A DNA stretch of 54,211 bases, counting the filler, from Diploschistes diacapsis (taxonomy: Eukaryota): assembly GCA_023645945.1 (NCBI GenBank). It is 4 parts of 4 records of this genome, joined end to end, with 100 filler letters (N's around TTAATTAATTAA, not from the genome) between each part and the next. Parts side by side here need not be neighbours in the genome. Positions count along the whole stretch, not along the records: positions 27,164 to 40,637 come from JALAIB010000658.1; 3 more parts are not named here. One strand, written 5' to 3'. Below, piece after piece: positions 20,425 through 47,700 of this stretch. The first letter of the stretch is position 1; every line of letters starts with the position of its first letter. The notes under the pieces were generated by a model that searched no databases, was not told where the DNA came from, and saw nothing but the letters and a program-made list of their open reading frames with translations. Both the position numbers and the translations under genes were made by a program.

Positions 20425-21948
20425 CTACTTGAGAATCCAGTGCTGTCGAGGGCTGCCGTTCCAACCCTGCTGAACCAGTGTGGCACCATTGTTGGTGCTA
20501 GAGATACCATCCAAAACCTTACCACTAGCCTTGTTCCAGATCTTGTAAGTGCCGTCCGACTGCTGATCAATCCACCAGCGCTGATTGGACTCCCGGGTTG
20601 GTTGCCATTGTACCATGGTAAGATTTTCTCCATCGCTTCCACCAGGACAGTCTAGCGATTGCCAGGTTGCAAGGTTGATGATGTTCCAAGAAGCATCCGA
20701 ATTTTGGGTGAACAGCCAGCGCTGATTTTGACTGTTGTTCAGCCCCCACTGTATAACAATATTGCCGTTCCCGTATGCACCGGCACTATCGATCGCCATG
20801 CCAGTCATTTGGTTGGTGACCACGTGTATGCCTCCAATCTCATTTGGTAAGGCAGCAGGCGTGAACTGGAGCCATGCCATCGCGCCAACGAACTTGTTCG
20901 GCTGCAGCGTATCATCAGCTGGCGTACGCTGATCCCATGCGTTCCATGTGATGCCAAGGTCGGTCCGTTGATTCTGTAGAATGGCGTCTGCGTTTTGGAC
21001 CATCCAAGAATGATATGTGTCCCACAGTCGGTTGTCTCGCACAAAGTGCCCAACGCCACGTGCCGTCTCGTCTGCCCAAGTGTTGAGATAGCCTGCGGCA
21101 TTGCTGAAGATGCCATTGACGGTCAGAGTGCGTCGAGCATAATCAATAGCCCGCTTAGCGTCATTATAGAATGCCACTTCCCCGGTAATCTCGTAGATCA
21201 GGTTAGCAAAGTCTAAAAATGTTCCCTGGTTATACGCCGTCGCCGAGGTATCGACGTGCCCGCTCTCATCAATTCCAGAATTTATCTGGCCTGTACCTGA
21301 GTTATAGAGATGGTTCCAGACCCAGTCGTAAATATTTCGGCACTTGGTCAGATAATTTTCGTCGTGCGTGCTCTGGTAGATCATGCATGCGACCTTCCCT
21401 AGGCTATCGTTCGAGAGAGCTTCCTTGGTCGGCTGTCGGGGAGGGTCCTCCTTGTCCGCATACTCGGGGTTTTCTTCCCAGATTCCCCCGTCATTGTATT
21501 TGGTATCCCACCCGCGACCGAATGCGTAGTCGAACCCATATTTGGCCTGGTTGAGAAAGGTTGTGTTTCCTGTGATCTGATAGCCACGAATGAGTGCCAG
21601 CGTGAACCAGCCAATATCATCGTTCCATCCATCCCAATTCCACGGCGGAGGAGTGTTCTTCAACCAGGTCGTCAGTAGGTCGTTGACGAGACTTTTCTTC
21701 TCAGGATCGCCGGTACGTTCATATGCATCTTCGGCTCCAAGAATATCGAGCGACCCGGCCCATGTTCCGTCTGGCTCCTGCTTATCCAATGCTTGCTTGT
21801 AAAAGACATCACTGCCAGATCTTATCAGGAACGCTTTGTTGAAGCTATCATACATGGCTTCCGCGTCACCATCTCCGACGGCGACTACAATCTGGGTCAT
21901 GGCGACAAAAAGTCCTAGTATGATGGCCAGTCGTGCCGGAAGCTCCAT
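20425..21948 (-). CDS. Secreted glycoside hydrolase family 76 (alpha-1,6-mannanase-like) with C-terminal ricin-B/CBM13 lectin domain, 507 aa
   Basis: Signal peptide; WNDDIGW (adjacent catalytic Asp pair of GH76); GGIWE, KEALSN, AYNQGTFL. The C-terminal ~135 aa carry QxW repeats (IQWG, NQRW, VQWQ, NQRW, RQHW). No introns and no GPI-type tail. Confidence 0.92.
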   Translation of the reverse strand: MELPARLAIILGLFVAMTQIVVAVGDGDAEAMYDSFNKAFLIRSGSDVFYKQALDKQEPDGTWAGSLDILGAEDAYERTGDPEKKSLVNDLLTTWLKNTPPPWNWDGWNDDIGWFTLALIRGYQITGNTTFLNQAKYGFDYAFGRGWDTKYNDGGIWEENPEYADKEDPPRQPTKEALSNDSLGKVACMIYQSTHDENYLTKCRNIYDWVWNHLYNSGTGQINSGIDESGHVDTSATAYNQGTFLDFANLIYEITGEVAFYNDAKRAIDYARRTLTVNGIFSNAAGYLNTWADETARGVGHFVRDNRLWDTYHSWMVQNADAILQNQRTDLGITWNAWDQRTPADDTLQPNKFVGAMAWLQFTPAALPNEIGGIHVVTNQMTGMAIDSAGAYGNGNIVIQWGLNNSQNQRWLFTQNSDASWNIINLATWQSLDCPGGSDGENLTMVQWQPTRESNQRWWIDQQSDGTYKIWNKASGKVLDGISSTNNGATLVQQGWNGSPRQHWILK

Positions 21949-22376
21949 GACAAGTGATTGTTGATCGGTGATGGAGGTATGAGAGCAGATATTTGGTGCC
22001 GTTCGGAGTACTTCGGAGGAGAGAGCTTGATGGAGGGTTTGTATCCACGACTGGACGATACTTGGAGAATAGTGAGCGCACCACTAGCCTTTTGGATTGA
22101 TTTCAGCTGCTAGTATGCACTCCGAGTCACTAGGTCGATGCAAATTTCCGATCCATCTGAACAGGCTAGGTACCGTGCTTGACGTCCCAAGGTTATCGAT
22201 TCTCCTTGTCTGGGATCGCCTGTGGTCAAGATTACTTACAAATTCCAACACATCCGACCAGTGACTATAGCTCGAAACTAGGATTACGCGCGAGTCATGA
22301 ATTTATGGCTTCGGGATTTTTTCGTAACCAGTAATCAGTGCTCAGTACTCAAAATTCAATAATCAATAAACAGTAA

Positions 22377-23124: not shown

Positions 23125-26100
23125 TCAGCCCAATTTATTTATAGCATTCCTTCTTGCACTCCAGTCCCGCTGTATACGACTTATTCTTGATGTTGCAAGG
23201 ACCATACAAAAGACAGCCCGTATCGAAGGGTGCTTCTTTCGAGCAGGTTGCTGTGGATTGACTCCTATATCATCTAGAATACGCAAATCTGCAGTATTGC
23301 TGCTCAATGTCAGTTAATGTCACATAAGATTCGATGATGGTCTTACCAGGCTTGGAACATGTTCATCTGCATTAGCAAGAATGTTTTCCCGTAGGTTAGC
23401 GCATCACGGAAGCCTTGTTCTCGCTTCAATCTGGCTCTGAGATACTCTATCTGCTTCGCCAAACATCTTATTTCTGCCGCATGTTTCTTGTCCCTCGGTT
23501 GCGAGTTCTTTTGCGCGCCATAAACTGCGCGCTCTTCGCGCATAGCCGTGTCTTGGGAATTGAAAGTTGATTTTCGCTCAGCGATTGTACGTTGATCCTC
23601 GTCGAACTTTTGCCGCTGCTTCACCAGTTCATCGACCTTCCTTTTGTAGCAGACTTGTAGGGAGTTCAGCTCCTTTGTTAATTCAGATGATTTCTGTTGG
23701 TAGTTGTTTCGTTCGCGGCGCAGCCGTTGAACCTGAGTTCTCGGATCTTTTTGATGTTCAAAAGTGGCATCGGTGCGCGCTTTGGAGTCTATTGTTCTGC
23801 AAGATAGGTCCTCGGCCTCAAACTTCGCAGACTTGATCATCTTATAAAGGTCTCGTCCCTCATTCGTCATAATATGGTCAGCCGCTTGACTGTCATGGAT
23901 GGTCTTCAGATCCTTCTCGAGTTGTTCGATCCGCGTGCGAAGGTGATGCATCGCTTGCTCCGAACTCTGCCGGCATCGCTGATGGTTGTCGCATTCTGCT
24001 TGGATGCTATGAATCTTTGCTTCAAGTCGATCGCGAACCCTCTCGGATTCGTCACCTTTGTTACGTACGAGCTCTTTAAATTCGGCCTCTATTCGGTAGG
24101 TCTTGAGTTCCAGCTCCTTGTAGCGAGCTCGAACTTTGCTGAGCTCGTTCTGAGCCTCCCGAAGCTTGCTCTGCAACCTAGTAGCCTCATCGGCTAAGCT
24201 TTTGTCTGTTTCTTTTCTGCCAGGCTCAAGACGCATGACCTGATTTTCGAGATACTCTACCTGATTTTGCAGTTCAATTCGCTGTTCCTGTTCGGTTTGT
24301 ACCCTTCTCCGCAACACAACAATTTCAGCCTCAGCCGCCTGGCGACTCTCTTCCATTCGACCCAACTTTTTATTAGTTGAGAGAAGCTCTAAGCGATAAT
24401 AGTCCGTTTCCTGTCTGTACTTGGAAATTTCTTTCTTGACACAATTTGCGTTATCCTCCAAAGCATTTTGCAGGATTTCAAGCTCGTCCTCTAGGCCTTG
24501 AGTCTTCCCTTGAGCCACCTGCTGCTTCCGTACATTGTCAGCCGCATCTTCCTGTGCTTTGAGCAACTGCATTTTCAGACTGGAAAGCGCGCTTGTCTTT
24601 TCTGCGACCTCAACTTCCAGCTGGCGAGTCTGTTGCATCGTGGCGTTCTTTTCGACCTGAGCTTGTTCGCGGGAGTGTTCCCACAATTTTCTCTGGCTTT
24701 CAAACTGGGTGCGCTCCGATTCTAAAATACTCTGTAGCTTGAAAACTTTTCCAGACACATTATCATTGTTGTTGTTTTCTTGTTGCAGTAATCGCTCCTT
24801 TTTCAGTGAGTGTTCTTTTTCTTGCTCGAGCTCACCACGCATTTCGGCAAACATAGCCTGTGAGCTTGCCAAAGCCACCTGCAGGCCGTCCGATTCAAGA
24901 GTAAGAGCATCATGACGCGTTTGAAGTAATTCTTTCTCGTCAGCTTTCTCTTGCAACTGGAGGACAAGTCCTCGGAGTTGGTTTTCGCATGCAACTTTCG
25001 CTTGAGAGATGTCCAGGTTTTCTTGATGAAGAAGGTCATTTTTAGAGACCAAAGCTTGACGATGGGCCTCACCGTCATCACTCGAAGATTTCAAGGCCTT
25101 ATCTAGGTTAGCTACCTCATTCACCTTGTCCTTGAGTTTCATTTGCATGTCTCTATGATTTTTCTTAAGCTCGGTCACGGTCTGCTCAGCTTTCACGACC
25201 CTATCCTCCAGATCAGACTTTAGCTTTTCAGTGTCTGATAGCTTGAGAGCTATTACGTCGTTGGCCTAGCAGCATTAACGTAGTCCCTTTACTAAAAATA
25301 CGATACGAACCTCAGCCAATCCCTTAATTGTTTTCTCCCTCTCGCGCTCTGTCTGCGAGTGTTCCTGTATCATTCTCTGCATTCGATCCTCGGATGCCCT
25401 TACGTCATTTCGAAGCTTCTCCATGGTATCCTGGAGATACTCGTAGTCCTCTATCCCACCATTAGCATCACGGAGTTCATGTTCTAGTCCTTGAAATTTT
25501 TCGAGCCGCAATTCGCGCAGGTCCTAAATATTAAATTAGCTGCATGAGCCAGATGTATTGCCTTTCAAGCCTACGTTTCCGTCTTTTTGTGCATCAATCA
25601 TTCGATCCTTCTCTCTCAGGTCGGCCTCAAGATCTTCAATATTTTCCTGCAATTCTTGCACTGTTCGCAGAGTAGGCGCCGAGGCTGATGCATCACGTAA
25701 TTCGGAAACCTCAGCTTCTTTTGTCCGTAGAAGTGCTTGAAGTGCCTTCAAATCGCCCTGAAGTCGTTGATTTGCGGACTCTTTTTCACTCCTGGCTTTG
25801 CCGTCGAGTAATTGTTGCCTCAGATTTTCCGCATCCCGTGCGGATGCATTCAGCTGTTTCCTCACTTTTGCAAGGTCCCGCTGCATAGTCACTTTATCGA
25901 CTCTGAGATCCGTGTTTTCCTTCAAGACATTTTGATTTATGTTCGGATCGGATTTTTTCAAGAGGTCTTCGAGAAAGTGTATCTTTAGTTTCAACCCAAA
26001 ATTTTCCTTTTCCGTCTTGGTAATGATCTGGGGTTAATTAGCTTCTGTCAAGTAGTATGCTCAAGAGACATGCATTTTCCTGCTCGCGTAACGTCATTAG

Positions 26101-26622
26101 GTTGCGCTGTTCATCTAGAATTCGGTCGCCACTTGCCAGTGGCAGGACAGCTACAGGAGTGCACTGAGTGCTACTACTGGCAACATTCGATAGAGGATAT
26201 TGTTCAGCACGGACACCCAGGTCGCTCTCAGTATCGCTGTTGAGAAGTTCCGAGCTATCTGGAGGCATTAGATCTGGACTGTCTCGAGGTGCATAGTCGT
26301 TCCTAAGGAAGGCTGGTGTTTGAGGCACGAGTGCAGTCTGCTTCCCATGGAGCACCGCCTTCTTGGTCACACTCTTTAGTAAAGGAGTAAATTCGCCAGA
26401 CCCTCGATTCCCAGCGAAGTTGGGTCGCTGGGCCAAATTGTTGCGAGAACCAACGGTTTTGAGGTAGTTGTGACTCTTATTTCTACTTTGCGAAAAAATT
26501 TCGTTGCGTCTCTTCTTTGGAGAATGAAATGACATTTCCATAGACAGATCATCGATACCAGTACCGTTTCCAACAAAAGTTGCACCCACCGGATCAGTAT
26601 GCGGGCTCTCAACAAATGCCAT
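23125..26622 (-). CDS. pcp1: Spindle pole body pericentrin-like protein (CM1/Cnn_1N + coiled coil + PACT), about 1102 aa, 5 exons
   Basis: Exons 26622-26074, 26027-25575, 25523-25311, 25265-23347, 23299-23125. CM1 motif TLREQEN|IITKTEKENFGLKLKIHFLED; long coiled coil; PACT region LAKQIEYLRARLKREQGFRDALTYGKTFLLMQMNMFQAC-NTADLRIL...SIRAVFCMVLATSRI. Confidence 0.88.
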
Positions 26623-26875
26623 GATTGATAATTATGACTGATTATTAGGGCATAGCAAGTCTCTTTAATCGGTCAGAATAAAATGTCGATATTGTGTGTT
26701 GAAGGAAGTCGCTGGCATGGGGAACGTGTAAGTAAACAAAGATTAAGCGAGAGAAGCTACAAGAGGTCAACTTCAATATCTTGGCTTATCCCCCGCAGTA
26801 TCTTTTAACCCCGTTATTGTTTACAGAGCGCTCGTGCCTAGTGATTCAAATAACCGCAATTCCTACCCTTATATA

Positions 26876-27163: not shown

Positions 27164-27169
27164 CCCCAG

Positions 27170-27991
27170 TCCTACGTCATCTGCGAACCCGCCGCCGCAA
27201 GCGTCATCAAAACCTACTCCCCCAACCTGATGGTTTCGCCCCTGATGCGCGAGTCCAAGACCCCATACCCACAAGACCCCAGCGAGCCGACCGCCGACCA
27301 CGTCGCCAGCACGATCGTCGACCTGCTCGCGCGCCTGCACGTGCTGGTCATTGGCCCGGGCCTCGGGCGCGACGAGCTCATGCAAGCGACATGCAAGAAG
27401 GTCATCACCGCCGCGCGCGAGCGGCAAATCCCGACCGTCATGGACGCGGACGCGCTGATGATCGTCAACGCGGAGCCCAGCTTCGTGAAAGGGTGGAAGG
27501 AGGTAATCCTGACGCCGAACGTCGTCGAGTTCCAGCGCCTGGCGGCCGCGGTCGGCGTGGACGTCGGCGGCGTGCCGAGGGAGGAGGCGTGCAAGCACGT
27601 TAGCCAGGCGCTGGGCGGCGTGTGCATCATCCAGAAGGGCGACGTGGATTATATTTCGGATGGGGAGAGGACGATGACTTGTGACCTGCAGGGCGGGAAG
27701 AAGAGGAGTGGAGGCCAGGGCGATACGCTGACGGGGAGCGTGGGCACGTTCTTGTGCTGGCGCAGGGCGTATTTGGATAAGCTGTGGGAGACGGAGGGGA
27801 ATATGGGGGAGGATGAATTGGTGATGCTGAGTGCGTGGGGAGGGGCGGCGATCACGAGGGAGTGTAGTCGGCTGGCGTTTGCGGAGAAGGGGAGGAGTTT
27901 GCAGGCGAGCGATGTAGGGGATAATGTGCCCAGGGCGTTTGAGGCGCTCATTGGGGAGAGGGAGGTTGGGGGTGAAGGGGCCAGGTTGTAA
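27170..27991 (+). CDS. NNR2: ATP-dependent (S)-NAD(P)H-hydrate dehydratase (YjeF C-terminal/CARKD family), last exon; 5' part missing
   Basis: After acceptor ccccag: [22 protein letters not shown], then [45 protein letters not shown], all hallmark motifs of the family. Confidence 0.95.
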
Positions 27992-29075: not shown

Positions 29076-31190
29076 TTAGCCTAGGATAACGTCTAGCAAT
29101 TCCGAAATGCTCGCCAGCGTAAGCTTCTGTCCTTCCTCGCGAGCCAGCGACACCGCACATGACGCTGCATTCTTGATCTGGCGTCCGTTCAGCGGCCGCT
29201 TCGCCAGTACTTCAACGTCATCGTCAGTGAGAGCCAATAGCGTGGTATTCTGAGCAATCACGTCCAGGAAGTTCTTCCAGATGATGGTGCGCTTGGCTTC
29301 ATCGAGATCGGGGTAGTGGAGGGTGAAGTGGATCCGGCTTTGAAAAGCAGGGTCTATTTCCTCCTTCCGATTCGTGGTTAGGATGAGGACACCCTGAAAG
29401 TATTCGAGCCGGCGCAGAAAGATGCTCACGAGCGTGTCCTGTTCCACGCTCTTGCCGCGAACTGAGAGGAAGACGTCTGCTTCGTCGATTAGTAGCACGC
29501 AAGCCCAACGCCGAGTGATTTCGAGAATCGTTTGTAATCTCGTATCGACTTTTTCGGGGTCAGCGCCTAGCTCGCCTCCGCTCGCTATGTACAAGGGACG
29601 GTGTGTAACCTCTGCGACGACCTCGGCGGTTAGCGTCTTGCCAACACCAGGGCTTCCGGTTAAGAGTCCGACCATTCCTTTCCCTTTATTTTCAATGATA
29701 TCGTCGAATTCTGTCTCGTTATTCCGGTGGGCTTTGACGAGGCCATGGATAATCCGGCGGCGAGTGTCGGCAATTGCCAGCTTCGAAAAAGCGTCCTCGT
29801 TCCATGCGATATCTATAAGGTCTGCGACTTTCAGCTGAACCCATTGCTTTCGTGGGAAGGAAAAGCCATTGAGCCAGTAGGCACAGACAAGATAGTGATC
29901 ATCGTTGAGATTGTCATAACGATTGATCGCATCGGCAGAGTAAACGTAGGGTTTGTTGAGCTCGTTCATGTTTGCATAGATTTTGAACGCTTGCGGATCC
30001 ACCATCACCCTACCCTTTGCCTGTCCAGTTGTCAGCAGAGAGAAGCCACGAGGGAAAAATTACGCTGCATACTGTGACCTTGACTACTTTATCAGTTCCA
30101 TCAATCAAAGTCTCTAACTTCGTGGCTGTAAAGGCCGTGTATTCCTGACAAACGGAATCTTGCACAAGACCTATAAACCTGCGGCCACGAGAGATCAGCC
30201 TCTTGCGAACTTCGTGCTGTTCCGGATGATAGTCAAAAGGATAGACCGGAAGACTATTTATCTTTCTGGCTCCTTCGTACTGATCGATCACTAAAGACAA
30301 ACCTCCCCAACCAAAGTCGTCGCCGTCATGGTTGATAAGGTTGCCGGTGACTGCAAGAAATTGACTCCCGTTTTGCCGTTGTTCATACTTAGGAACAGAT
30401 TTCAGGAACATGGCTTGTTCCTGCGCTAGAGGGCCATGACGTGGAGCGAATAATAGCTGCTTGGGGGGAAATAGAACCCAGAGAAGGTCCCACGTGATCT
30501 CCGCGTGTTCAAGCAAGGAGTTCAAGTCTAGCATTCTTGACCCAAAGTCCTCATCCACAAAGCGAAGCGCCGTTCCGATATCGTTCACAAGACCCTGGGA
30601 CGGAGTCTGCTTCTGCTTCTCTTGCTCTTTTCGAGCCATTAGACGTGGTCGTGCGTGGAAGAACAACTGCGGGTCAGCCTGAATTGCATAAGCCATCCAT
30701 CAATAGAGAGATGTAATACAGGACTTCGGAAGCCTGAAGTACTCCAGGAAGTGCACTGGCCTTACCATTGGCGGCGATTTGTTTAGAGATAAGCCTTCAA
30801 CGCCCTGAAAAATGTCTCGCATCAAAGTACTGAGTGGTTCCGACTTGATGTCCACTTCGGTACTGGTGACCATGCCTTGTTTGCTGATAATGCGTCGAAC
30901 GACCAGTGCCGTCTTGCCAAAACGATCAGGCCTCGCTTTGGGCTTGGTTGTTTTGACGAAGTGAACCTGCCGATCTTTCCTTGACTCTTGTTGGCTTCCG
31001 AGCTTCATAAGAGGCATATTCAGAGAGATTACCTGCTATAGCTATAAATGCGTTAGCTGTACCATCTACGTAGAGCTTATCTGAGGACTTACATCTGATC
31101 CACTCGTAGCAAACTCTGCGCCTTGTTACCTAGGTCAGTCATCACCCTATTGACTCCTGGGTTGGGAGCGTCTTCCTGCTCATTTTCCAT
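29076..31190 (-). CDS. Fungal AAA+ ATPase (single AAA module with a long N-terminal region, DUF7025-like family), about 5 exons
   Basis: ATG at 31190. ORF pieces 30700-31017, 30010-30696 and 29076-30008 join through GT-AG introns (PPM|ADPQLFFH; KVT|AKGRVMVD). Walker A GSPGVGKT, Walker B LLIDEAD, sensor-1 LTTNR, Arg finger DPAFQSR, sensor-2 LNGRQIKN; family motifs ITWDLLWVLF and KINSLPVYP. Confidence 0.9.
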
Positions 31191-31521
31191 CGTCTTGATC
31201 GTGAACCCAGTAGGCGGTGAACGCGAGTTAGACTGTCAAGCACTACTGCGAGATTTAGACGTCTCGATTTTGCACGCGATCGCGAGATATTTCTGAGACG
31301 GCAAGTTCAAACTGAGAACTTGAGGTACATTAGAAGTGATCTTCTAGTATTCTCGCAGCAATTTTGACCAAAGACCAGGCTCGATCATAGCAGTAACTGG
31401 TGCCAACGCCAGCGTTGCTAGCCTTGCAAGCCTGATGAGCTGGCAAGTTCTTAGAGACGCTCATGCGTCCAATAACTAGATTCAGCTCCTCACTAGCAGT
31501 CCCCAACTTTTATTCAAGGAT

Positions 31522-34500
31522 ATGCCGTCCAATGATCACTTTCTGCTCATGATTGATGACACGGCGAGGCTGTGTAAGCAGCAGAAGCACTGCATAAAGG
31601 TCAATATACCCAGCGATTTGGCCTGGGGTTAGCTCTGCAGTCCTGCAAAGAAAAATTCAACTCTGCATACTGAATGCTGAGATAGATACCTATTCTATCC
31701 GGAGATTTATAAGGCATCAAAACTTCCAGAGTTGAAGGTTGCTCGTAACGATAACGGCGATATCAGCCTTACGAGGCAGTATGTCATTGGGAAGACGTGT
31801 GTATGGGATTTCCATTGCACTTGAACAGGGAACAGACTTATTGACCATGGCTTCAGTACTTTTGAAAACTCGTCAGATAAGACGAAGACGCAGACAGCTG
31901 CATCCCCCTTCGGACGAGCACTGGACGAATATGTGCGGACGAGAGACAAGAAGAGCAAGCTCCCTCAGTTTATTGCAGACCTGCAAGAATCAGACGAAAA
32001 CTGGACCAAGAAAGATGTCCAAAATGCCATTGTTCGCCTCGAGCGCGAGAACTCAGATCAAAAGAGTGTGAAGATAGTGAGATCTGTACTTAAGCCAGTC
32101 ATCTCCTTGCTTTCCGACTACTCCTCGGTGATTGATACACTTGCTCAAGCAGATCCCATGCCAACGTCTGTCATCTGGGGTTGCCTCCGTGCCGTTATCA
32201 ATGTAGGTCTAGTTCTCCGGTGATGACGCTTCCCTGTTTTCTATGTGCATAGGCCCCAGGCGGAATGGTGGAGGCCATCTCCTTACCTTTATGATGACAT
32301 CGGACGCATTCAAGCGCTACTAATTTGAGCTACTTGTCATGATAATGCGGATGCAGTCTGTATAAAGGTCATGAAACCACTTCGTGTATTTGTATAGTAA
32401 TCACTAGCTTGACTGGAAACTACGAGCACGAGCACGGAAGCAACTTTATGTATTTGGTTTTCTGGAGTGTCCCCCTCCAATATCATGGAGTATGTCAATC
32501 AGCCCAGAATCTTGGACTTGAATTTGAGCGAGATCTTCCAACACGTTGCTATAATCCAACATGGCTAGCGCTGCGTTCAGTTTTGGAGGCCCCTTGCTGA
32601 CATGCTATGACAGAGTTCGAGTCGTTTTCTCCACCTATACGATGAGATACCGAAGCAATTGGAAGCTCTTCAGGTCCACCTGTCCCGGCTCACTGAGTTT
32701 GAGGAGCTGTTTGGTGAATCAAGCAATATGCAGCTTCTCTTAGAAAAGTCGTACATCAACATTATCCGCTTTTGGTATCAAGTGGAAAAGGAGTGCAAGA
32801 GGTGCAGTTAGTTTTGCCATAATACATGTTGAGGTCGCATGTAATATCATTGCTAACGGCTATTAGTCGCTGTTCGTGCGCTCAGGTCTCTTGGCTCCTT
32901 TGACACATCGAAGCTTGACAGTATTGTATCAGAGATCGGAAAAGATGCAACTTATGTTGCTGCTTTGGTGCCGATTGTGCAAGAACGTATTAATCGAGGT
33001 GAGCGTGAAGATGCCGCAGAGGAGCGTCGTTTGGCAGGCTCAGCTCGAGATCAGCAAGCTGCCATGTTTGAGATCTTTCTCGAAGAGCGAAAGGGTTAAT
33101 GGGCACTTTCCAAACCTTCATATCACAGTCTATCATATTAATCTTCACCAGGAAATCACCTTAAAAATGTTCGGAACTGGCTGCAATGCGGATTTATGCC
33201 CCTTAACGAAAGTAACTCGAGGCACCAACATGAAAATGCTAGCCACCGAAGCCCTGATACGTGTCTCTGGCTTCCAATTCATGAAGTTTTCTCACGATGG
33301 ATCGGCAATGCTCACAATACTAAACTTTGGCTGAGAGCTGCCCCGGGGATTGGCAAATCTGTCCTATGTTCCTATGCTATCGATCACGTATCTGCGCTGC
33401 GACCGGAGTTTTGTTGCATCTACCAGTACTACTCTTTTGATGAAGAATTCACGCCACTTCAGGTTTACCGCCATCTCGCTGCGCAGCTGGTCGATCGCTT
33501 GTGGGCACAAAATCAGGAGATACCGGAAGAGATCCATTGTTATACACAACAAAGCGCCTCATGTTCAAATTACGAGAATGCAAAAACAGTGCTTCAGATG
33601 CTCATTGCCAAGTTCCCAGGGACTTACATTTTCTTGGACGGGCTGGATGAAGAGTGCGAGAACGAGCAGCGGTGGCGTGGGCTGCTGGAAGTCTTGCAAT
33701 TCCTTAATGGTCTTCCATCAGTTCGGCTTTGGTGTAGCTCCCAAGACCGGGCTCGTTTGCACTCCGTTCTAGAGGGCTTTGCTCTGATTGAGATGTCCAA
33801 GGACCTCAACAACGCTGACATTGAGCTTTGTTTGTCCAGAAGAATTTCGGAACTTGACGCGCTAGAGCTTGACGAAGGCTACAGAAGGCTGATCCTTGGT
33901 GACCTGCTTGGCAAGGCCGATGGCTGCTTTCTCTGGGCTTCGTTGATGTTAGATTCAATCGCAGATGCTCATACCCTGAACCATGTCCAACAAGAAATCC
34001 AAGGAGAGCTTCCTGAAGGTTATGAGCAGTACTATGCTCGAAAACTCAAAAGTATTAAGGAAGGCGACAAAGGTCTGGCCTGGTAAGTCCCGTCATGTCG
34101 TTGATTCACCTGTCTGTATTCTGATTGGGCACAGTATTTTGCTTGCTTGTATCGTGCATGCGAGACGACCTTTGCGTCTTGATGAGCTTAGCGAAGCCGC
34201 AGCTGCGGCTTGCGTGGAGGACAAAAGTGGCATCGATAAGTCTCAAAAGCTGTTCAAAAGCAAGATTTTGAAACTTTGTGAGCCACTTATCCAAGTTCAG
34301 AAAATCGGGGGAACTGCATCGAATTCTGTGTGTACCCTTACACACTCGTCGGTTCAGAAGTTTCTGCTGAAGCATCCCGATATCCTGTCATCGCGTAGTG
34401 CTCCACAACGCTCTAGATATCTATTGACAGAAGAAGTTATGGGCAACGTCTGTCTAAGATACTTGTGGCAACCAACATATCGAAAGCTCCTGACGAAAAC

Positions 34501-37271
34501 GAGTGATGCATATCTCGACCTTAACGGCACTGATCTTATGGAACAACATCTTCTGCCATACGCTGCGAAATACTGGGATAAGCATCTCGACAGTGTTTCT
34601 GGACATCGCGCTTCAGGTGGTTGCGAGGACCCAGAATCGTTCTGTAACCGTGTAATGAGGTTCATACAATCAAGTCAGTTTGTGACTTGTTTGCAGGCAC
34701 AAAGTCTATTGGTAGAAGGTACAGCCACATCACTGCCTACTGAGGTTCAAGCTAATACCATCTATGCAGGGCAATTTCAGTTCTGGTTAAGTGCCAATCA
34801 CACATACTTAGGACCACACATTAAGCGCGTCTTCCCGCAATGGTTTGCTGGAGAATGTCACCCACTCCTTGCTCAAGATTATCAATTCCTCATTGGAGAG
34901 TGGGGAGAACTTCTTGATACGATAACTAGCTCACGAGGACCCTTTCCCGGTGAAATAGATCGGTGCTTGTGGAAGGCTCTAGGACCTAATCATTTCCTTC
35001 GAAAGGCAGCGTCTCGTTATGAAAGCTTTATGCTCTCAGAGGGACATGAAGCAGGCGACCCACTACCTCGACGATATTATGACGCGGTGAATGAAGCAGG
35101 TGACCAAATGCTGATCCTGAAACTTGAAAATCTGTAGGTACTATCATAAACGAAGTTAATGATATTTGAAGCTTTTTCGGGTCCCAGCTGCATATCATTG
35201 CTAACCAATATACAGGCAGGCGAACGATTCGGAATTACAGTTCGAATGTCAGTCATGGAGGCTGGACGGGCAAAATCCAGGATGTGCCAAAACCGAAAGA
35301 CTCAATATAGTACGCTCTGCTTGGCGTCTTTACGAGTATCCCCTTCTTGAGAAAGTACCGGGCAGATCTTTACCTATCGATGCGACGCCGGATCTTCAAC
35401 ATCTCAGAATCGGCTCTCAAATCTTTGCGAAGTCCCTTCGAGGCGCGTATAAAAATCTTCCTCTTCGTGATTCGGGGCTGTACATTGAAGATATTGCAAG
35501 CCAGGGCCGCTACTTGGCAGTTTCACGACGTAATGAAATCACGGAAAAAGATCTTTACGCATACCAAAATGAAGCGGAAGCAGATACAGGGAGAGACTAT
35601 GCCGAATATCTTGTCCTAAGGCTCGAAGAATACCTTCGGGCAAAACAAGGGACTACCGTATCGTCCGCTGCAACAACGCAATCAGAAGAGTCGTCCCAGC
35701 CTGCTCCATCATCACGCACATCTCTATCGCGTCACTCGGAAAAGGAAGTCCAGGAACAGATTGCTGAAACTCAGGTTACTGATGGCGTAGAGTCTGAAGA
35801 CTTGTCCGATTCACATGTAGAGGAAGAACTAGTAGAGTCTGAGGCGGCTGAGAACGAGAGTCTGAACCTGGAAGACTCGCTGACAGAATCCGATGTGAAC
35901 TCTGCTGAAATGTCGTGGAGCGAAGCTTCAACACAGGCAATCTCGGAAATTGATGAGGATTACTGGAATGACTGGGAAAGCAAAGACCCAGAGTTGGAAG
36001 ATTTCAATGATTCGAATGCATCTGACCCTTCGGAATCCGAGGTTGAAATTAAGAGCGAAAGCTCGGAGACTATTTCAAGTGCCGACGATATCGAGATATC
36101 TGGCGCTAACATCAGTCTGCATTATCGGAAACAAATTGGTAGAGAAGAAGAAGTCTATCAGGACGACGACAGTTATGAAGAACGAGCGTCAGACGGTTTG
36201 GAAAGTGAATATTCTGGAAGTCACGTTAGCAGTACGGAAGACGAGGAAAGTGGGCCAGAGAACGAACACGGACGTCGGCTAGAGGACCTGCTGCTAGGCA
36301 GACAAAACGCCTCACAGAAAGTCACGCAAAAAATCACCATCCAAGTCTATGACACCGCGGATGGAGCGAAGGCACACCCTTCCATATTCCATTTCACACA
36401 GAACGCAGCTGCTACAATTTATGCCTCGCCACCAATTTTTCACCCCACAAAACCCCTTCTCGTCTGGCCCATCGGCAACAACGAAATCCTTTTCGCAGAC
36501 GTCTCTTCTAACACGTATTTTACCCGTCTCCTCAACTGCACCACATACAATACCTGTCACGTTTTCGTCAAAGCCCACTTCTCTCCCGACGGTACTTGCC
36601 TGCACTTCGCAGCTCTAGAAGCCAGCCAAATCGACACTGGGTTCGGCCCAGAGTCCACGAAACCTAACATTAGGCTCAATCTTCAGGTAACTACACATCG
36701 GCTATCAAACCGGAAGACAACGCGTGCCCCACCGCGTCTCGTTTTTCGCACTAACCTTCCCCTCGGCAAAGTCTCGCGCCTCAATGTGTCCAGCTTACCC
36801 TATACTCTCACATGGCGCGCCAACGATCTATACCTGACGACACGATCCAACATCCTCCAGGTGATCCGAATCCCGCTCTTTCCTCTCGTATCGGGCGTCA
36901 ATTCAGTCCCAATTTGCTACACGCAATCGCCAGTTTTCCTCCCGCGCACGACGCTGTCGCGGAACGTATACTATTTCCCACCCGCCAACAGAACCGAGAA
37001 GGGAAGCAAAAACAAGCGGGACAAAGCAATGGCGATCATCGGCAGCCATAGTTCGATGCCGTCTCAGAGACTTGTTGTGCCAAGGGTTCAGGTATCGCCT
37101 CCCATAGGCGTACTTTTGGATGAGGAGCGCGATCTCGGCGGGTGGCAGTGCAAGACGAACTCCAAATGGAACGAAGATGCAGGGGCAACCAAGGGCGCGG
37201 GAAGATTGCAAGCCAGGTTCGAGGCATTTGATCTGAGGGAGGATTGCGATATTATACCTTATCTATTTTGA
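31522..37271 (+). CDS. NACHT/STAND (NLR-like) protein: helical N-terminal domain, NPHP3-type NACHT, winged helix, and non-canonical C-terminus with a long acidic insert; multi-exon, 5' end uncertain
   Basis: Spliced by eye: VIDTLAQADPMPTSVIWGCLRAVIN|SSSRFLHLYDEI...SYINIIRFW (Goodbye/DUF7708-like); RSPDTCLWL; Walker A LWLRAAPGIGKS (33337-33360); Walker B IFLDGLDEE; KADGCFLWASL; ARRPLRLDELSEA; HSSVQKFL; LLPYAAKYWDKHL. An open frame runs from about 35217 into ORF 35514..37271. The start codon could not be fixed; 31522 is the nearest candidate. Confidence 0.85.
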
Positions 37272-37817: not shown

Positions 37818-39836
37818 ATGTCATTCCTTGGTGGCGCCGAGTGCTCAACAGCCGCAAATCCTCTGGCCCAATTCTCCAAACACACACAAGATGACAAGTC
37901 ATTGCAGAGGGATAGGCTTGTTGGTCGAGGCGGAGGGGGGCACTTTGACAGCATACGCTCTCAGATGCCGACAACCCACAACGACAAGGTTCGTGCAACA
38001 GCGTAGTAGGCGCTTTACGTTTAGCAACATCCAAGAGGAATTAGTTGGCTCATGCAAATACAGATGATGGCCAGCTTTCTGCAGCAACCGAGTCTTCCTC
38101 AACAAGCGCCACAGCCTTTTGCTATGGACCAGATAAGAAGGGACCTTCCAAACTTCACATCAGCGGTGCCGCGGACAGGATCACCATCGTGGGCGGCTGA
38201 ATTCGGCAGCAGCGACCACATCCATATGGACGCTCCCTTCCACCCTGTAAAAAATGCAGCCTCCCCGGGTTTCAGCTCATCAGAATTTCAAAAATTCCAA
38301 CATGCTACCGGGGGTGCACGGATAGCCTCGCCGACGTTCAATGCTTCCACCATGAATGGCTATCAAAGGCCAATGGGCATGAATTACGGAATGGGTATGA
38401 ACGGGATGGGAATGATGGGCAACTACCGACCGATGATGAATATACAACATCAACCCGAGGCCGTGGCGGAGGGCAAAGACAAGGGCCGAATGGTCGAACT
38501 GGATGACAAGAACTGGGAGCAGCAGTTCGCCGAAATGGATGTTGCGCACCAAGATCAAGTCGATGATGCCGCCAACACAGCAATGGAGGAAGAGATGAAT
38601 GGCATAGACAGGTCAGTAGCTTCCCAGACGTTAAACGGCGACTTTGAAAGCATCTGGCAAGGGATCGAAGCTGAAAAACCCGCCAACAGAGACCTAGTCG
38701 CCGAGTTTGAAGACTACTCCAGGCACACAGGCGACTTCGATCCCTGGTCGGGCTTCGACTCGCTGGGGAGCCACGGCGGCTTCCACGACCCGCAGCTTGG
38801 CGACTACCTGTTCGAAGAAGACAACATCTTCCGCGCGACGCAGGACCCCTTCAACGAGGGTCTCAAGATAATGTCCGAAGCAGGAAATCTATCCCTTGCA
38901 GCCCTCGCCTTCGAAGCCGCCGTCCAGCGCGACCCGCAGCACGTGCAAGCATGGACCATGCTCGGCGCCGCACAGGCACAAAACGAAAAGGAAACGCCCG
39001 CCATCCGCGCGCTCGAGCAGGCGCTCAAAGTTGACCCCACGAACCTCGACGCCCTGATGGGCCTCGCCGTCTCGTACACGAACGAGGGCTACGATGCGAC
39101 AGCCTACCGCACGCTAGAGCGCTGGCTAGCAACCAAATACCCGCAGATCATATCCCCGGATAATCTCTCCTCCGCCACTGACGTCGGCTTCACCGACCGC
39201 CTGCTCCTGCACGACAAAGTCAGCAACCTCTTCATTGCCGCTGCCCAGCTGTCGCCGGACGGCGAGCACATGGACCCGGACGTGCAGGTCGGGCTGGGCG
39301 TGCTGTTCTACGGCGCGGAGCAGTACGACAAGGCGGTCGACTGCTTCCAGTCGGCGCTGGCGTCGACGGAGACGGGCACCTCGAACCAGAGGGGTCAGGT
39401 GCATCTGCTGTGGAACAGGCTGGGCGCGACGCTGGCGAACTCGGGCCGCTCCGAGGAGGCGATCGCGGCGTACGAGCGCGCGCTGACGCTGAACGCGAAC
39501 TTCGTGCGGGCGCGGTACAATCTAGGGGTCAGCTGTATCAATATCGGCTGCTACGAGGAGGCGGCGCAGCATCTGCTCGGGGCGCTGAGCATGCACGCTG
39601 TTGTCGAGAGGGAGGGGAGGGGGAGGGTAGAGGAGGTACTGGGGATGGCCGCGGCCAAGGCAGGGGCCGGCAATGTGGACGAGGCCCAGCTCGACCGCCT
39701 GATGAGCATGAACCAGAGCAGCAATCTGTACGAGACGCTGCGGAGGGTGTTTGGGCAGATGGGCAGAAGGGATCTGGCGGAGAGGGTGGTGCCCGGTGTG
39801 GATGTGGGGGTTTTCAGGGGCGAGTTTGAGTTTTGA
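37818..39836 (+). CDS. PEX5: Peroxisomal targeting signal 1 receptor (2 exons)
   Basis: Exon 1 (37818-37988) MSFLGGAECSTAANPLAQFSKH with the conserved N-terminal Cys; intron 37989-38063; WxxxF motifs (WAAEF, WEQQF); TPR block LAFEAAVQ...QAQNEKE...LAVSYTNE...LWNRLGATLANSGRSEEAI...RARYNLGVSCINIG. Confidence 0.97.
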
Positions 39837-42162: not shown

Positions 42163-43968
42163 TCATTTCACTATCGCTCGAACACCTAGTGAGCCTGGTT
42201 TGGGCCGTGGTGCGAAAGCATCGCTGGCACAATCCACTGCTGTCCTTTCTGTTTCGTGGAGCTCGAATTCGAAATTTCGGTATAGGTTGGCCATGATGAT
42301 GTACCTGGATCACGCATTAATCAGGAGGTTGGAGCAATCACTTTAAATGGGACCACGAACATCTCCGCCAGTGCCAGGTTCATTCCAATACAGGCACGAG
42401 TGCCGCGACCGAAGCTGACCATATAACTATTCAATTGCTTCCCATCCGGCGCTAGGGGGCTGCCCAGCCAGCGCTCGGGTCTGAATGTATAGGACTCGGG
42501 AAAGATCTTTTCATCGTGCGAAACCGCATACTGTGGCGGCGGTCAGCTATAGGGTACAAGCAGGTGTAATTCGGATTGAGCTACGTTGTCCATGCTAATC
42601 ACTGTCATGGGAGGTATCACGTAGGCGCCATAAGCAATGTACATATGGTCTGAAATGCGGTGTCCACGCTGCGAGGTTCCGTATGACATTCGACAAGCTG
42701 AGCGACGAGGCACATTATTAGAGTTGCATAGAAAGGGGGACAATGAGGAGCGCTCACATTCCTCGATGCATGCAGCGAGGTACGGAAGTTGTTCCAATTT
42801 CTCTAACGAAGGCATTTCATCCGGGTCAGGGATTGCTTCTTCGAGTTCCTTTCGAAGTCGCTGAAAAATAGCCGGCGTGTTAAGAATGTGAAAGCAGCCA
42901 ACTGAAAGAGCCCATCTCGTGGTTTCAACACCGGCACCAATAATGGTGGTTGCTTCATGCTGCAAGCGGAGTGGCGAAAGTTCCTGAGGAGGAAGATCAG
43001 ACTCCAAAAGTGCCTTGAAAACTGTCTTCCGGCGAGAGTCTTTGCTCTCGAGCTGGGGGTTTTCGAGTATGTGGGAGATTTGGCGGCGCATTTCCTTTCA
43101 AGGTCAGAGATCTCCCCGAACTCTGAGCTAACCTACCTTGTTAAAGCCATTGACTACATTCATGTCCGGATTGAGCTTCGCTAGTAGGTTATCCGGAAGA
43201 GCACTCAGTATCCTAGCAACCCAAGGGAACTGGGTGACAAGGTGCACGTTATCCAGCAAACTATTCATGGCCTCAGCAAAACCGCAATAAAAATCCGGCG
43301 CCTCTAGCCAGTTATAACGATTTTCAAAACAGTAAGCAACGACGGTATCGGCAACGTAACTAGCAAACATCCAGTCAAGTCGTAGAACCTTTCCACTATT
43401 TCTATACTCCCGACTCAAACGGTTACACAATCCTGTCATTTGAAGCTGCATAACAGGCGCAAATTCAGAAATTTTCCGTTTAGAAAAGAATGGATTTAGC
43501 GCCGCACGTCGGTGACGATGTAACTCATGAGATGGAGTTGGGAAGAGCCCGTTGTCGTTACTGAAACGATGCTGCAGATGCTTTGGCTTGTCCCATGGCC
43601 GCGATTGAGAATAAAGCACATGGAAGAATTCGGAGTCCTGAATATGGACCTCATAGGGACTCAGGCGAATGATAGGACCTTGTAAGAACATCAGAGCCCG
43701 ATTTTTGAAAGCGCTTATATATGAAAATACCGTATCTCTGGTGCAATTTGCGATAATGGAACATGAATTGACCCCCTGGCGGCTTGAAAAGATCATAGTA
43801 AGTCTCATACCACTGTGTCAAGGCTGCAAGCCTTGGGCCCGGGATAGTGGCAAGCGGACTAAGAAACAATCGATAAACGCCCAGACCGAGGAAATAGAAT
43901 ATCAAAATGAACGGGACGGCCGTGATCAAAGAAAAATGAAGCAGGTAATCCTGAGATAGCGACTCCAT
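42163..43968 (-). CDS. Cytochrome P450 monooxygenase (trichodiene oxygenase/CYP58-clan-like), multi-exon
   Basis: ATG 43968. N-terminal membrane anchor followed by LSPLATIPGPRLAALTQWYETYYD; YG|PIIRLSPYEVHI; I-helix GAGVETT; spliced ExxR; FRPERWL; heme motif FGRGTRACIGMNLA (about 42375-42415). Last exon YIIMANLYRNFEFEL...GVRAIVK*. Confidence 0.93.
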
Positions 43969-44781
43969 GGCAAAGATGCTGTCTCTAGGTTGAGTTGGAG
44001 ATGAAAGTTTGCCTCTGCTGTCGAAAATCAAGGCAGGCTCTTGAAGGGATGAAATCTAGATCTACAGCCGAAAATGCGAGTGCGGTTGAAGTGCGAAAGT
44101 CACAAAGAGTCTCAATCCATCTCACCCTGATGGGCTCCCTCGTATGCAGACTGATGCTCGGCAGGTGGGCTGCAGTTGTGGACCCCCACAGACTTCTCCC
44201 AAGGTGGTTTTCTATCTGCATGCAGTACTTTTCTAATGGTTGCACTGCACTGCCACGTCGCTAATAGCAGGCCTGAGTATTCCATATCAATGGAAGCTTG
44301 TGATCTTCATAACAGTAAAATGGCGGTGAAGATTGTGTGTAACATTGGTCTTTTGGCGTGATGTTGCATAATGCAAGTCAAGGAAGCTGATGGCAAAGAC
44401 CCACAACTGAATGTTCCGGAAAAAAGTCGAGCATCTGGTTAGCCACATCATCCTGCCTGTGTTCGTACTGGAAGGCTGGGCTCCAGCTACGCTGGAGCAT
44501 TCCATCCGTAGCCCTTGTATTCATCAATCCGCACCAGAAGAGGGTCGGAAGCGCACATCAGCCTTTTTAGTGCTTGGAGCGAGACAGACAAGGACTATTA
44601 GAGGAGAGGAGAGTCATAAAAGAGAAGCAACAGCCGAGTCATCGAAAGCACCCAAAATCAACTCCCAGTTGAGAAAATAAGGCTACCTGATCCTTCTTTT
44701 CTTCAGACTGTACCTCCGCAATTGCGCTTCTAGAACTTAATCGACTTCCAAGTTTTCAAGGCTGGCTAGAAGAACATCGCA

Positions 44782-47700
44782 ATGCACACCGCTGATGGCG
44801 TTCACGGGGTCAACTCGGGAGCCCCTCTGAGCGCTCCCCGGCCTGATAAAGTACCGAAATATGTTCAAGACCCTATTGCCGTGGTAGGGATGGCCTGTCG
44901 TCTGCCTGGGAACAGTAATTCACCGCATGCTCTCTGGAAGTTCCTAGAACAAGGAGGTATTGCAGATAACGAAGCCCCAGCAAGCCGTTTCAACCTCAAA
45001 GGCCACTTCGATGGCTCCAGGCGGCCAAAAACGATGCGGTCCCCAGGAGGGATGTTCTTGGAACACATAGATCCTCAAGAGTTTGACGCTCCTTTCTTCG
45101 GGATCTCTAAAGCCGATGCAATAGCCATGGATCCTCAGCAGCGTCAGTTGCTAGAAGTTGTCTATGAATGCCTCGAAAATGCTGGAGTCACCATGGAAGC
45201 CATTGACGGAGCGCCAATCGGTTGTTTTGTGGGCTCTTATGGCGTAGGTATGTATATATGGGGACATGAACCCTATATCTGTCAGACTTCAGCAAGTTCC
45301 TGGCTTACCATATCGTTAGACTATGCCGACATGCAAGCTCGAGATCCCGAGGACCGGGCTCCGTCGGTGACTATTGGCATAGGTCGGGCAATTTTGAGTA
45401 ACAGAATTAGTCACTTTTTCAACATCAAAGGTCCAAGGTGCGCGCATCTCGTATCTCACTCAATCGAGGAAATAGATCCAGCTGGCTAAGCATTCAAGTA
45501 GTATGACCATTGACACCGCTTGCTCTGGAAGCTTGGTCGCAGTCGATGTTGCATGCAGATATCTGCAAACCCTTGAGATTGACGGCGCTGTGGTGGCAGG
45601 GGGTAATCTATATCTGAGGTGATTTGCTGCTCATTTACATGCCCTGTTTACTCAAAACCTAACATCAGAAAATAGTCCAGAGCACAATCTCGACAGTAAG
45701 TGAAGTCGGATCTAAGTCGGATCTAAGAGAGAGTGGGGCGGGTGTCGGACAAAGTTCGTTCCTTCGCTAACTGGATTAGGCGGAGCTATGAAGGGTGCGT
45801 CGTCGCTTTCGGGTAAATGCCACACCTTCGACGTCAAGGCCGACGGATATATTAAGGCAGAAGGCGTGAACGCTGTCTTGCTCAAGCGATTGAGTGACGC
45901 AATTCGGGACAAGGATGTGTACATCTTTTAGGTCCTTTGTGTGGGCTGACTACAGTGCTAACTTGAAGCTAGAATCCGCGCTGTCATCCGGGGAACTGCG
46001 ACAAACAGCGATGGCCGAACACCAGGAATCGCGAGTCCAAGCGCTGAGGCGCAAGCGGTCGCCATCCGAGCAGCATATGCGAATGCAGGACTGACTGAAT
46101 ATAATGAAACCAAGTACCTGGAATGCCACGGCACCGGGACTCAGGTATATGCCCTACATCATCTCCTGTTTAGTAGGATATTCGTCTGATTCTTAGGTTT
46201 AGGCTGGCGATCTCCAAGAAGTGCAAGGAATTGCATCAGTTTTCTCCCATGCGAGGCCACTCGATGAGCCGCTCATCATCGGATCTGTAAGTAGACCTTA
46301 TCAAAACTGCCAGCTTACGCACCCAGATGCAGTTGATGCTGATACTATATTGCCATGAACGTAGATCAAGAGTAATATTGGACATTCCGAACCGGCCGCC
46401 GGGATTTCGGGCCTGCTGAAAGCCATTCTAATCGTCGAGAATGGTATCATCCCAGGCAATCCTACTTTTATTACGCCTAATCCCAAAAGTATGTGAACCT
46501 TCATCGCGCAGTCGAACGACGGTGATGGTCTCTGACGTTCTATAGTCGATTTCCATAACCTCAGAATTCAGGCAACCAGAACAGCGATACTCTGGCCTAG
46601 GGGGACGATCCGCCGCGCAAGCGTGAACTCTTTCGGCTATGGCGGCTCCAACGCGCATGTGGTGGTGGAGGAGCCAAAGATGCTCGTTCCGGAGTCCGCT
46701 CTGATACATAAATCATCTTATGCGTCGACAGAGAATTTCTTCGATGACGATGACGTCCCAGTCTCACCAAGCCCTCATGTGCTGGTCTTTTCTGCCAATA
46801 AAGAAACTTCGTTGCAATCATATATACGGGCTATTCGCAAGCATTTACTCGACCCGAATGTTAAGATTCAGCTGCCTGATCTTGCGTATACTCTGTCTGA
46901 GCGCAGGACCCGTCACTTCAATCGCGCTTATTTTGTTGCGAGGAACCTGGACCTGGACGAGGCCTCCATCTATTATGGTAAAAAAGGCAATGAGGCTCCC
47001 CGGGTTGGATTCGTTTTCACCGGCCAAGGAGCGCAGTGGGCCCAAATGGGCAAAGAGCTCGTGGACCTGTTTCCTAATGCCAGACTACTCCTTCAGCACT
47101 TCGATGATGTACTGCAGTCTTGCTCTATGCCACCATCGTGGTCTCTTCTAGGTAATGATTATACCACTTCTTCGATGCCACGGCTATGCTAACCTGGCAG
47201 ACGAGCTCACCAAACCCAGAAGCCCTGAGGCTCTTCGACAGCCTGAATTCTCACAACCTCTCGTGACTGCTCTCCAGTTAATTCTACTAGCAATTCTTCG
47301 AGAATGGGGAGTCATGGGAGTGCACGGAGTTGTGGGCCATTCTTCGGGGGAAATAGCAGCGGCATATGCGGCTGGGCTACTGTCTCAGGAGGACGCGATT
47401 ATTGTTGCGTACTACAGAGGCCAGGCCGCTAAAATGTACGGCAGCGGCAACCCTACTGTTGGTATGCTTGCGGTTGGTCTCGGGGCTGATCAAGTCCGAC
47501 CCCACATTCAAGACTTTGAAGAGTCGGTTCAAATCGCTTGCTACAATAGCCCTACCAGCGTGACTTTATCCGGAAAGTTAGAAGATCTAGAGATTATCAA
47601 ATCTCGCCTCAGCGACGAGAGCCACTTTGCGAGACTACTTCAAGTAGACCTAGCCTACCACTCGAAGTTCATGGCAGACATAGGGAAAAAATACAGAGAG

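Follow-up and report, generated by a model that had tools for sequence, protein, structure and literature searches.

Does a gene for a AAA+ ATPase belong with the gene for an immune-type receptor that stands head to head with it, and if so, what would the ATPase do for its neighbour? The question is raised by a 54,211-nucleotide stretch of DNA from Diploschistes diacapsis (assembly GCA_023645945.1; hereafter the window), in whose record JALAIB010000658.1 a AAA+ ATPase gene (AAA) and a gene for a NACHT protein resembling NOD-like receptors (NLRs) point away from each other. The initial annotation, made from the sequence alone, had seen in them a two-gene module, and this core idea has held: homologues of the two genes are adjacent and divergent, and their trees are congruent. 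Being neighbours with one family tree across distant fungi, they are very probably one unit, and we are highly confident that the pair works as one functional partnership of some kind. As for the specific mechanism, we favour, at a probability of roughly 0.4, one in which AAA would be a remodeller acting on the N-terminal half of the NLR-like protein.

29076..31190, minus strand: AAA+ ATPase gene, 5 exons, 623 aa, with DUF7025, a classic-clade AAA domain and AAA_lid_13
31190-31093, 31041-31033, 30979-30766, 30678-30073, 30020-29076, minus strand: exons of the AAA gene, one terminal stop
31191..31780: divergent intergenic region of 590 bp, putative bidirectional promoter
31781..37271, plus strand: NLR-like gene, 8 exons, 1573 aa, one terminal stop, GT-AG introns; DUF7708/Goodbye-like head, NACHT (NPHP3_N type), helical and winged-helix region, beta-propeller with an acidic insert, conserved C-terminal tail
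31781-31800, 31857-32202, 32614-32806, 32867-33094, 33152-34082, 34135-34718, 34770-35133, 35216-37271, plus strand: exons of the NLR-like gene

The two intact, divergent P-loop genes of the initial annotation are recovered as spliced models that stay open to their stops on one contig (G000:C3983). The intron positions of both were fitted to homologues and are predicted; the 9-nt micro-exon of AAA (31041-31033) agrees with the homologues P0017, P0020, P0021 and P0032, and named fungal proteins reach 61% identity to AAA. Of the indels listed for a second strain (run X2; 12 of 35 shown), those inside the gene spans sit in predicted introns, apart from one 42-nt in-frame insertion in the acidic loop. 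Of the two starts first proposed, ATG 31190 for AAA is kept in the predicted model. The NACHT start at ATG 31522 was rejected: its frame ends after about 36 codons, and homologues align from 31781. Since the model that begins there aligns with the homologue P0145 from its very first residue, ATG 31781 is the more likely start, which sets the two ATGs 590 bp apart instead of about 330 bp. No 8-mer was common to more than four of the 11 upstream stretches that we compared.

Linkage, orientation and shared phylogeny

Relatives of the NLR-like protein were sought with its last exon (15 matches) and with an alignment (45 matches), and relatives of AAA with the AAA exon, from which the best 120 of 1219 matches were used. 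The adjacency of homologues had been named beforehand as a point on which the module could be refuted. All 24 same-strain cases in which both relatives were among the matches listed agree with linkage, 14 of them by consecutive gene IDs and 10 by an equal-sized longest contig alone or with non-consecutive IDs. Consecutive locus tags were seen directly in Talaromyces atroroseus, Aspergillus brasiliensis, Clarireedia jacksonii and Bogoriella megaspora, and eight of nine candidate pairs chosen for their equal-sized contigs have consecutive accessions; in Penicillium glandicola, where the contig is also equal-sized, the AAA and NLR accessions are 11 apart. Ten further NLR representatives were picked blind to their names. 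Four came from organisms that the AAA list also contains, with consecutive tags in Teloschistes exilis and Hymenoscyphus fraxineus and equal-sized contigs in two Xylariaceae; the other six (five from Agaricomycetes) fall outside the linkage count. For seven more species the equal-sized longest contig is the sole sign of linkage. Many named NLR or AAA matches lack a same-strain counterpart among the matches listed and do not count as negatives. We take the pairs with consecutive IDs or equal contigs to span five ascomycete classes. A second AAA of Phaeosphaeriaceae PMI808 lies on a different contig, where no partner was seen.

Orientation can be read from metagenome loci. We collected 32, of which 18 are informative, that is, they hold the 5' end of the NLR gene and at least 2 kb upstream of it; the other 14 are too short. 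AAA lies opposite the NLR gene, head to head, in 16 of the 18, although six and two of these paired loci are near-copies of one another; across the ten distinct ones, the start-to-start distance, measured between aligned starts, is 608-1213 bp. The genes that flank the pair in the window, a hydrate dehydratase and a tetratricopeptide repeat (TPR) protein, had no match in any of the 32 loci, and the NACHT family of the window was found in none of 80 loci from prokaryote-labelled contigs.

Full-length relatives of the AAA family (37-42% identity over the best segment) occur on three prokaryote-labelled contigs (L063:5374-7104, L064:4657-6789 and L070:5404-7233), in surroundings that look phage-like or plasmid-borne from their open reading frames (ORFs) and with no NACHT neighbour; L064 is titled as a Pseudomonas plasmid. 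The interrupted, fungal-like AAA copies on contigs of bacterial metagenome-assembled genomes (L065, L066, L067 and L072) are probably eukaryotic contamination. On a short contig, two inverted partial copies of the 3' half of the NLR gene (L056:44-4136) are either an assembly artefact or an inverted duplication.

The two genes also have matching trees. For 21 pairs, tree distances of AAA and NLR correlate at r=0.985, with 10 strong splits in common and no conflicts; for 28 pairs including ten loci (FastTree), the correlation is r=0.95, and each of the 15 strong splits of the AAA tree is found again in the NLR tree, so that the congruence expected by the initial annotation is found without a supported conflict. 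Linked genes share trees by descent, and congruence alone is therefore weak evidence. A more telling sign is that monophyly of Aspergillus, Helotiales and Dothideomycetes is rejected in both trees (approximately unbiased test, p <0.001), with p-values that are optimistic because the groups were named after the trees had been seen and the model was simple. This common non-monophyly suggests, from the sequences at hand, that both genes were duplicated, lost or transferred together. Nested among the Agaricomycete NLRs are L032 and L052, which carry the pair, and also L038 and L051, which showed no AAA upstream of the NLR gene. The pair thus extends into basidiomycete-like lineages, where it is broken at times. 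A Penicillium pair (P0005/P0038 and P0141/P0042) nests inside Aspergillus in both trees, which suggests cassette transfer or hidden paralogy.

Within species, variation is low: identity is 98-100% among nine A. niger AAAs, 97-98% among three A. niger/welwitschiae NLRs and 98.9-100% among nine B. cinerea NLRs, the last taken from the 24 members of one 90% cluster. Divergent A. niger AAA alleles were considered and rejected, the many clusters being annotation variants at 98-100%. Deeply divergent alleles of the type found at heterokaryon or vegetative incompatibility (het/vic) loci were not seen in the A. niger and B. cinerea sequences retrieved, and such near-identity argues against a polymorphic het locus.

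The two proteins and a second pair type

30223..30525, minus strand: DUF7025 (PF22942), E 2e-24
29634..29657, minus strand: AAA Walker A, intact
29475-29495, minus strand: AAA Walker B, with sensor-1 and one arginine-finger Arg also there
31857..33094, plus strand: N-terminal helical head and linker of the NLR-like protein, exons 2-4, DUF7708 E 7e-4 on one exon
33334..33360, plus strand: NACHT Walker A, intact; Walker B at 33631-33651
35216..37271, plus strand: last exon, one predicted beta-propeller split by a disordered insert, no Pfam match
35655..36260, plus strand: disordered acidic insert rich in D/E/S, about 200 aa, 51% D+E+S
~35901-35930 and ~35952-35975, plus strand: two conserved Trp-containing motifs in the acidic insert
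37227..37268, plus strand: conserved acidic-hydrophobic C-terminal tail, of low confidence in the single-exon model

AAA (Pfam PF00004 and PF23232) has everything expected of a classic-clade AAA+ protein, namely Walker A and B, sensor-1, arginine finger and helical lid, and its catalytic motifs vary little or not at all among 87 aligned relatives. The structure model of its closest homologue, P0021 (mean predicted local distance difference test score 88.5), resembles p97, NVL and FtsH, with p97/CDC48 6hd3 at Z 19.4, root-mean-square deviation (rmsd) 3.2 and 232 aligned residues; on this model, AAA is closest to remodellers of the p97/NVL/FtsH type. For its N-terminal 300 residues, the structure matches listed all fell on the AAA domain, and the Atlas gave only DUF7025 clusters. 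The protein ends with the lid, and neither it nor the NLR-like protein has an amyloid-motif match in Pfam, the search having used Pfam alone and no motif grammar.

The NLR-like protein is, as the initial annotation had it, of NLR type. NPHP3_N is matched above cut-off (E 4e-24) and NACHT below it (E 1e-4). The Walker motifs are intact throughout the family: 43 of 44 aligned relatives have GK[ST], and the remaining one is gapped at that place. The DUF7708 head, weak in the window, exceeds the cut-off in the homologues P0145 (E 1e-11), P0157 and P0161; the Goodbye match in P0145 is weak (E 8e-5, below cut-off). An AlphaFold2 model of the last exon (predicted template-modelling score 0.67) is a single propeller, Foldseek matches WD40-type propellers, and VIA-align places it on Sec12 4h5i at Z 14.8, rmsd 4.3 and 267 aligned residues, a score at which many propellers are tied. 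The superstructure-forming C-terminal domain of fungal NLRs is thus present by predicted fold with no Pfam repeat match, no tandem repeats are visible in the propeller, no solved structure matched the protein by sequence, and Atlas matches for its C-terminus all lie below 0.9. With the modelled propeller, the NLR-type architecture of N-terminal head, NACHT and propeller is complete. One practical consequence is that an unannotated NLR C-terminus can be a full beta-propeller missed by Pfam-based surveys of NLRs.

This architecture is stable. Among all 50%-identity representatives, 95 NLR matches were found at E up to 1e-30, and the 43 newly listed relatives of at least 1100 aa all match the NLR-family profile over most of their length; the propeller exon turned up in no other architecture, and none of the 43 is fused to an AAA. 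The family has one member in the D. diacapsis genome.

The same genome holds a second type of pair, at two places:

G000:C3916 (L152:789-6207): DUF7025-AAA facing a short DUF7708+NPHP3_N gene whose Walker A is degenerate
G000:C935 (L150:2622-9339, L151): DUF7025-AAA and a short DUF7708+NPHP3_N gene facing each other across a beta-lactamase-family gene

Both short genes have a degenerate Walker A, end after the NTPase core and encode no sensor; the NLR-family profile did not pick up these divergent genes. Counting top-scoring candidates, three of the eight AAA-family loci in this 29-Mb genome face a DUF7708-NACHT gene, and three of the six DUF7708 loci seen are paired with AAA, the three others showing no such AAA within the stretches examined. 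What is common to both pair types, as we read their sequences, is the head plus the NTPase core, and a NACHT protein can evidently lose its own switch beside AAA.

What the ATPase may do

In the mechanism that we favour, the NLR-like protein would be a STAND switch, with the beta-propeller as putative sensor, an intact NACHT in the middle and a putative output in the Goodbye/MLKL-like helical head; the heads of Goodbye-like proteins have the MLKL four-helix core (PMC9815663). The DUF7025 AAA+ hexamer would be its private remodeller, binding the N-terminal half of the partner and spending ATP to change its state, be it by releasing the head or by disassembling an active oligomer. Co-transcription, binding, the contact site, the direction of control and an output in defence or cell death are the parts of this picture that we infer. 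An action on the N-terminal half is favoured because head and NTPase core are what the two pair types have in common, and in one of them the partner stands switch-less beside AAA. More tentatively, we envisage an ancient cassette, either pre-dating the split of Ascomycota and Basidiomycota or moved between them, whose AAA+ motor might arm or disarm a Goodbye/MLKL-headed NLR, which would be a new mode of NLR control. If this is true, the large and functionless DUF7025 family would consist largely of private NLR remodellers, and an external motor could replace an NLR's own nucleotide switch.

Several observations weigh against the remodeller mechanism. The 2 of 18 informative loci without an upstream AAA are L038, where an F-box-like frame (by inspection) takes its place, and L060, with no AAA within 2.3 kb. 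Pore-loop 1 of AAA has no aromatic residue opposite the p97 D2 loop, as is also the case in p97 D1. An aromatic pore-loop 1 is a feature of threading unfoldases, and lacking those D2-type residues, AAA is a doubtful candidate for ordinary substrate threading. The most striking conserved motifs outside the core, in the acidic insert and the C-terminal tail, lie in the C-terminal half of the NLR-like protein and could be the real docking sites. The second-type AAAs fall outside the 63-row clade of the window AAA, on long branches, and the two pairings may therefore be convergent and work differently. Low allelic diversity is unlike many immune loci.

The direction of action could be reversed, with AAA as the output: an activated NLR oligomer would recruit or switch on the AAA hexamer, which would then remodel a third target, so that the NLR-like protein would serve as sensor and adaptor, as NWD2 does for HET-S. 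We regard this as unlikely but deserving serious attention, for linkage and trees fit it equally well, AAA retains every catalytic motif, the propeller exon was not found outside this architecture, to which all 43 long relatives conform, and fungal STAND genes often adjoin their effector, sometimes divergently (PMC3321046). Yet the NLR-like protein already has a Goodbye-like head of its own, no common terminal motif was evident on informal inspection of the alignments, and the absence of AAA fusions among the 43 contrasts with known STAND/effector couples, which also exist as all-in-one proteins (PMC3321046). A non-immune complex, in which STAND protein and AAA would do a cellular or developmental job such as protein or organelle quality control and linkage would reflect co-regulation, is distinctly unlikely in our view. 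The single family member in the genome, the architecture fixed over deep time, the near-identical alleles and the propeller without visible repeats all suit such a role; the location of the pair is mobile, however, as its changing flanks indicate, and both trees split Helotiales, Dothideomycetes and Aspergillus alike, a sign of cassette duplication, loss or transfer that is more typical of accessory or defence genes.

Near-identical alleles count on the other side when AAA is imagined as a bait or essential target guarded by the propeller, so that loss or modification of AAA would trigger the NLR, with an allorecognition locus as the extreme form. Het loci are known in which receptor and ligand genes are neighbours, and propeller and tail are well conserved; given the allele identities reported above for A. 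niger and B. cinerea, and a second pair type that has no sensor, we find a guard of this kind improbable. That the two genes are merely inherited together, with no function in common, is very improbable indeed: descent alone would give linked genes like trees, AAA is missing at two informative loci and the interaction is so far a prediction, but adjacency has been kept over five presumed ascomycete classes and in basidiomycete-like loci while the flanks changed, and the DUF7708-NACHT genes facing three of eight AAA-family loci would be left unexplained. Most fungal NLRs are without a known partner or output, and the arming or disassembly of any NLR oligomer is an open question; the pair points to a candidate partner of one conserved NLR family and suggests what the DUF7025 AAA family may do, and both genes are intact in laboratory-tractable Aspergillus species, where binding and epistasis can be tested directly.

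Neighbouring genes and known systems

27164..27991, plus strand: NAD(P)H-hydrate dehydratase (PF01256), 5' part cut by the contig start; outside the module
38025..39836, plus strand: TPR protein, PEX5-like according to the initial annotation; outside the module
4642-9312, plus strand: 1556-codon open frame with a weak methyltransferase match below cut-off
16752-17132, plus strand: reverse-transcriptase fragment amid short frames, probably a decayed retroelement
20425-22083, minus strand: glycoside hydrolase 76 fused to a ricin-type beta-trefoil lectin domain
23343-26631, minus strand: coiled-coil gene with a centrosomin N-terminal motif
42543-53360: highly reducing polyketide synthase divergent from a cytochrome P450, a secondary-metabolite cluster

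The pair does lie, on one contig, between the genes called NNR2 and PEX5 in the initial annotation, which we see as the PF01256 fragment and the TPR gene. A lower GC content at third codon positions than in these flanks had also been pointed out, and the values agree (AAA 0.57 and NACHT 0.49, versus 0.84 for NNR2 and 0.74 for the PEX5 frame). The contrast is not diagnostic, because five other ORFs of the window have 0.45-0.58; as a sign of foreign origin it was rejected, and indices of repeat-induced point mutation are unremarkable.

The initial annotation knew of no described fungal NLR/AAA pair, and our literature search likewise gave no description, with most subscription papers and supplements outside its coverage, where tables of NLR neighbours could mention one. 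Such a gene pair goes unmentioned in the portions available of PMC12258605, PMC10907252, PMC7159879, PMC3689799, PMC13449251, PMC9815663, PMC3321046, PMC7982415 and PMC4986451.

The closest relatives of this arrangement are found among systems that share one or other of its features. The AAA ATPases IetA and Trip13, the latter of CBASS, are also of the classic clade and encoded beside an immune-type protein. Both are thought to control these neighbours. Their PADLOC matches here cover the AAA core only (E 1e-14 to 1e-6, the level of p97/FtsH matches; structure match 6p8v), and, unlike in IetAS or CBASS, there is no S8 protease, HORMA or cyclase partner, the NACHT partner having no PADLOC match. 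Prokaryotic MoxR-vWA ternary conflict systems combine a AAA chaperone with a STAND protein (iSTAND) and a propeller, and are predicted to control the assembly of effector complexes; those with iSTAND, FtsH-type AAA or beta-propeller are computational predictions (PMC7159879), and the window pair has neither MoxR nor vWA.

Among eukaryotes, plants and Sordariales have head-to-head NLR pairs with the same divergent layout and short common upstream region, which in the Sordariales make up 13 of 225 two-gene clusters (PMC12258605). Both genes of plant-type pairs are NLRs, a sensor and a helper, whereas the second gene here is a classic-clade AAA and not a STAND. The Goodbye-like/NACHT NLRs covered by passages of PMC4986451 and PMC9815663 have the same tripartite build of head, NACHT and superstructure-forming C-terminus; ours differs in a propeller with no WD40 Pfam match, a 200-aa acidic insert, a conserved tail and an architecture fixed across phyla, and those passages mention no dedicated neighbouring AAA. 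The nearest parallel in layout is nwd2/het-S and related fungal pairs, in which a STAND gene adjoins its partner, divergently in some species, and the arrangement is conserved across fungi (PMC3321046). There, the STAND lacks an effector of its own and is coupled through a shared amyloid motif to one of the HeLo, sesA/B, Goodbye or PNP kind (PMC3321046); here, the partner is, by its sequence, a catalytically intact AAA+ motor (DUF7025-AAA-lid), and the STAND carries its own Goodbye-like head. Set beside these systems, the pair appears to be a real, ancient and apparently undescribed module, a variant on the theme of an NLR with an adjacent partner that has a fair chance of embodying a new mechanism.

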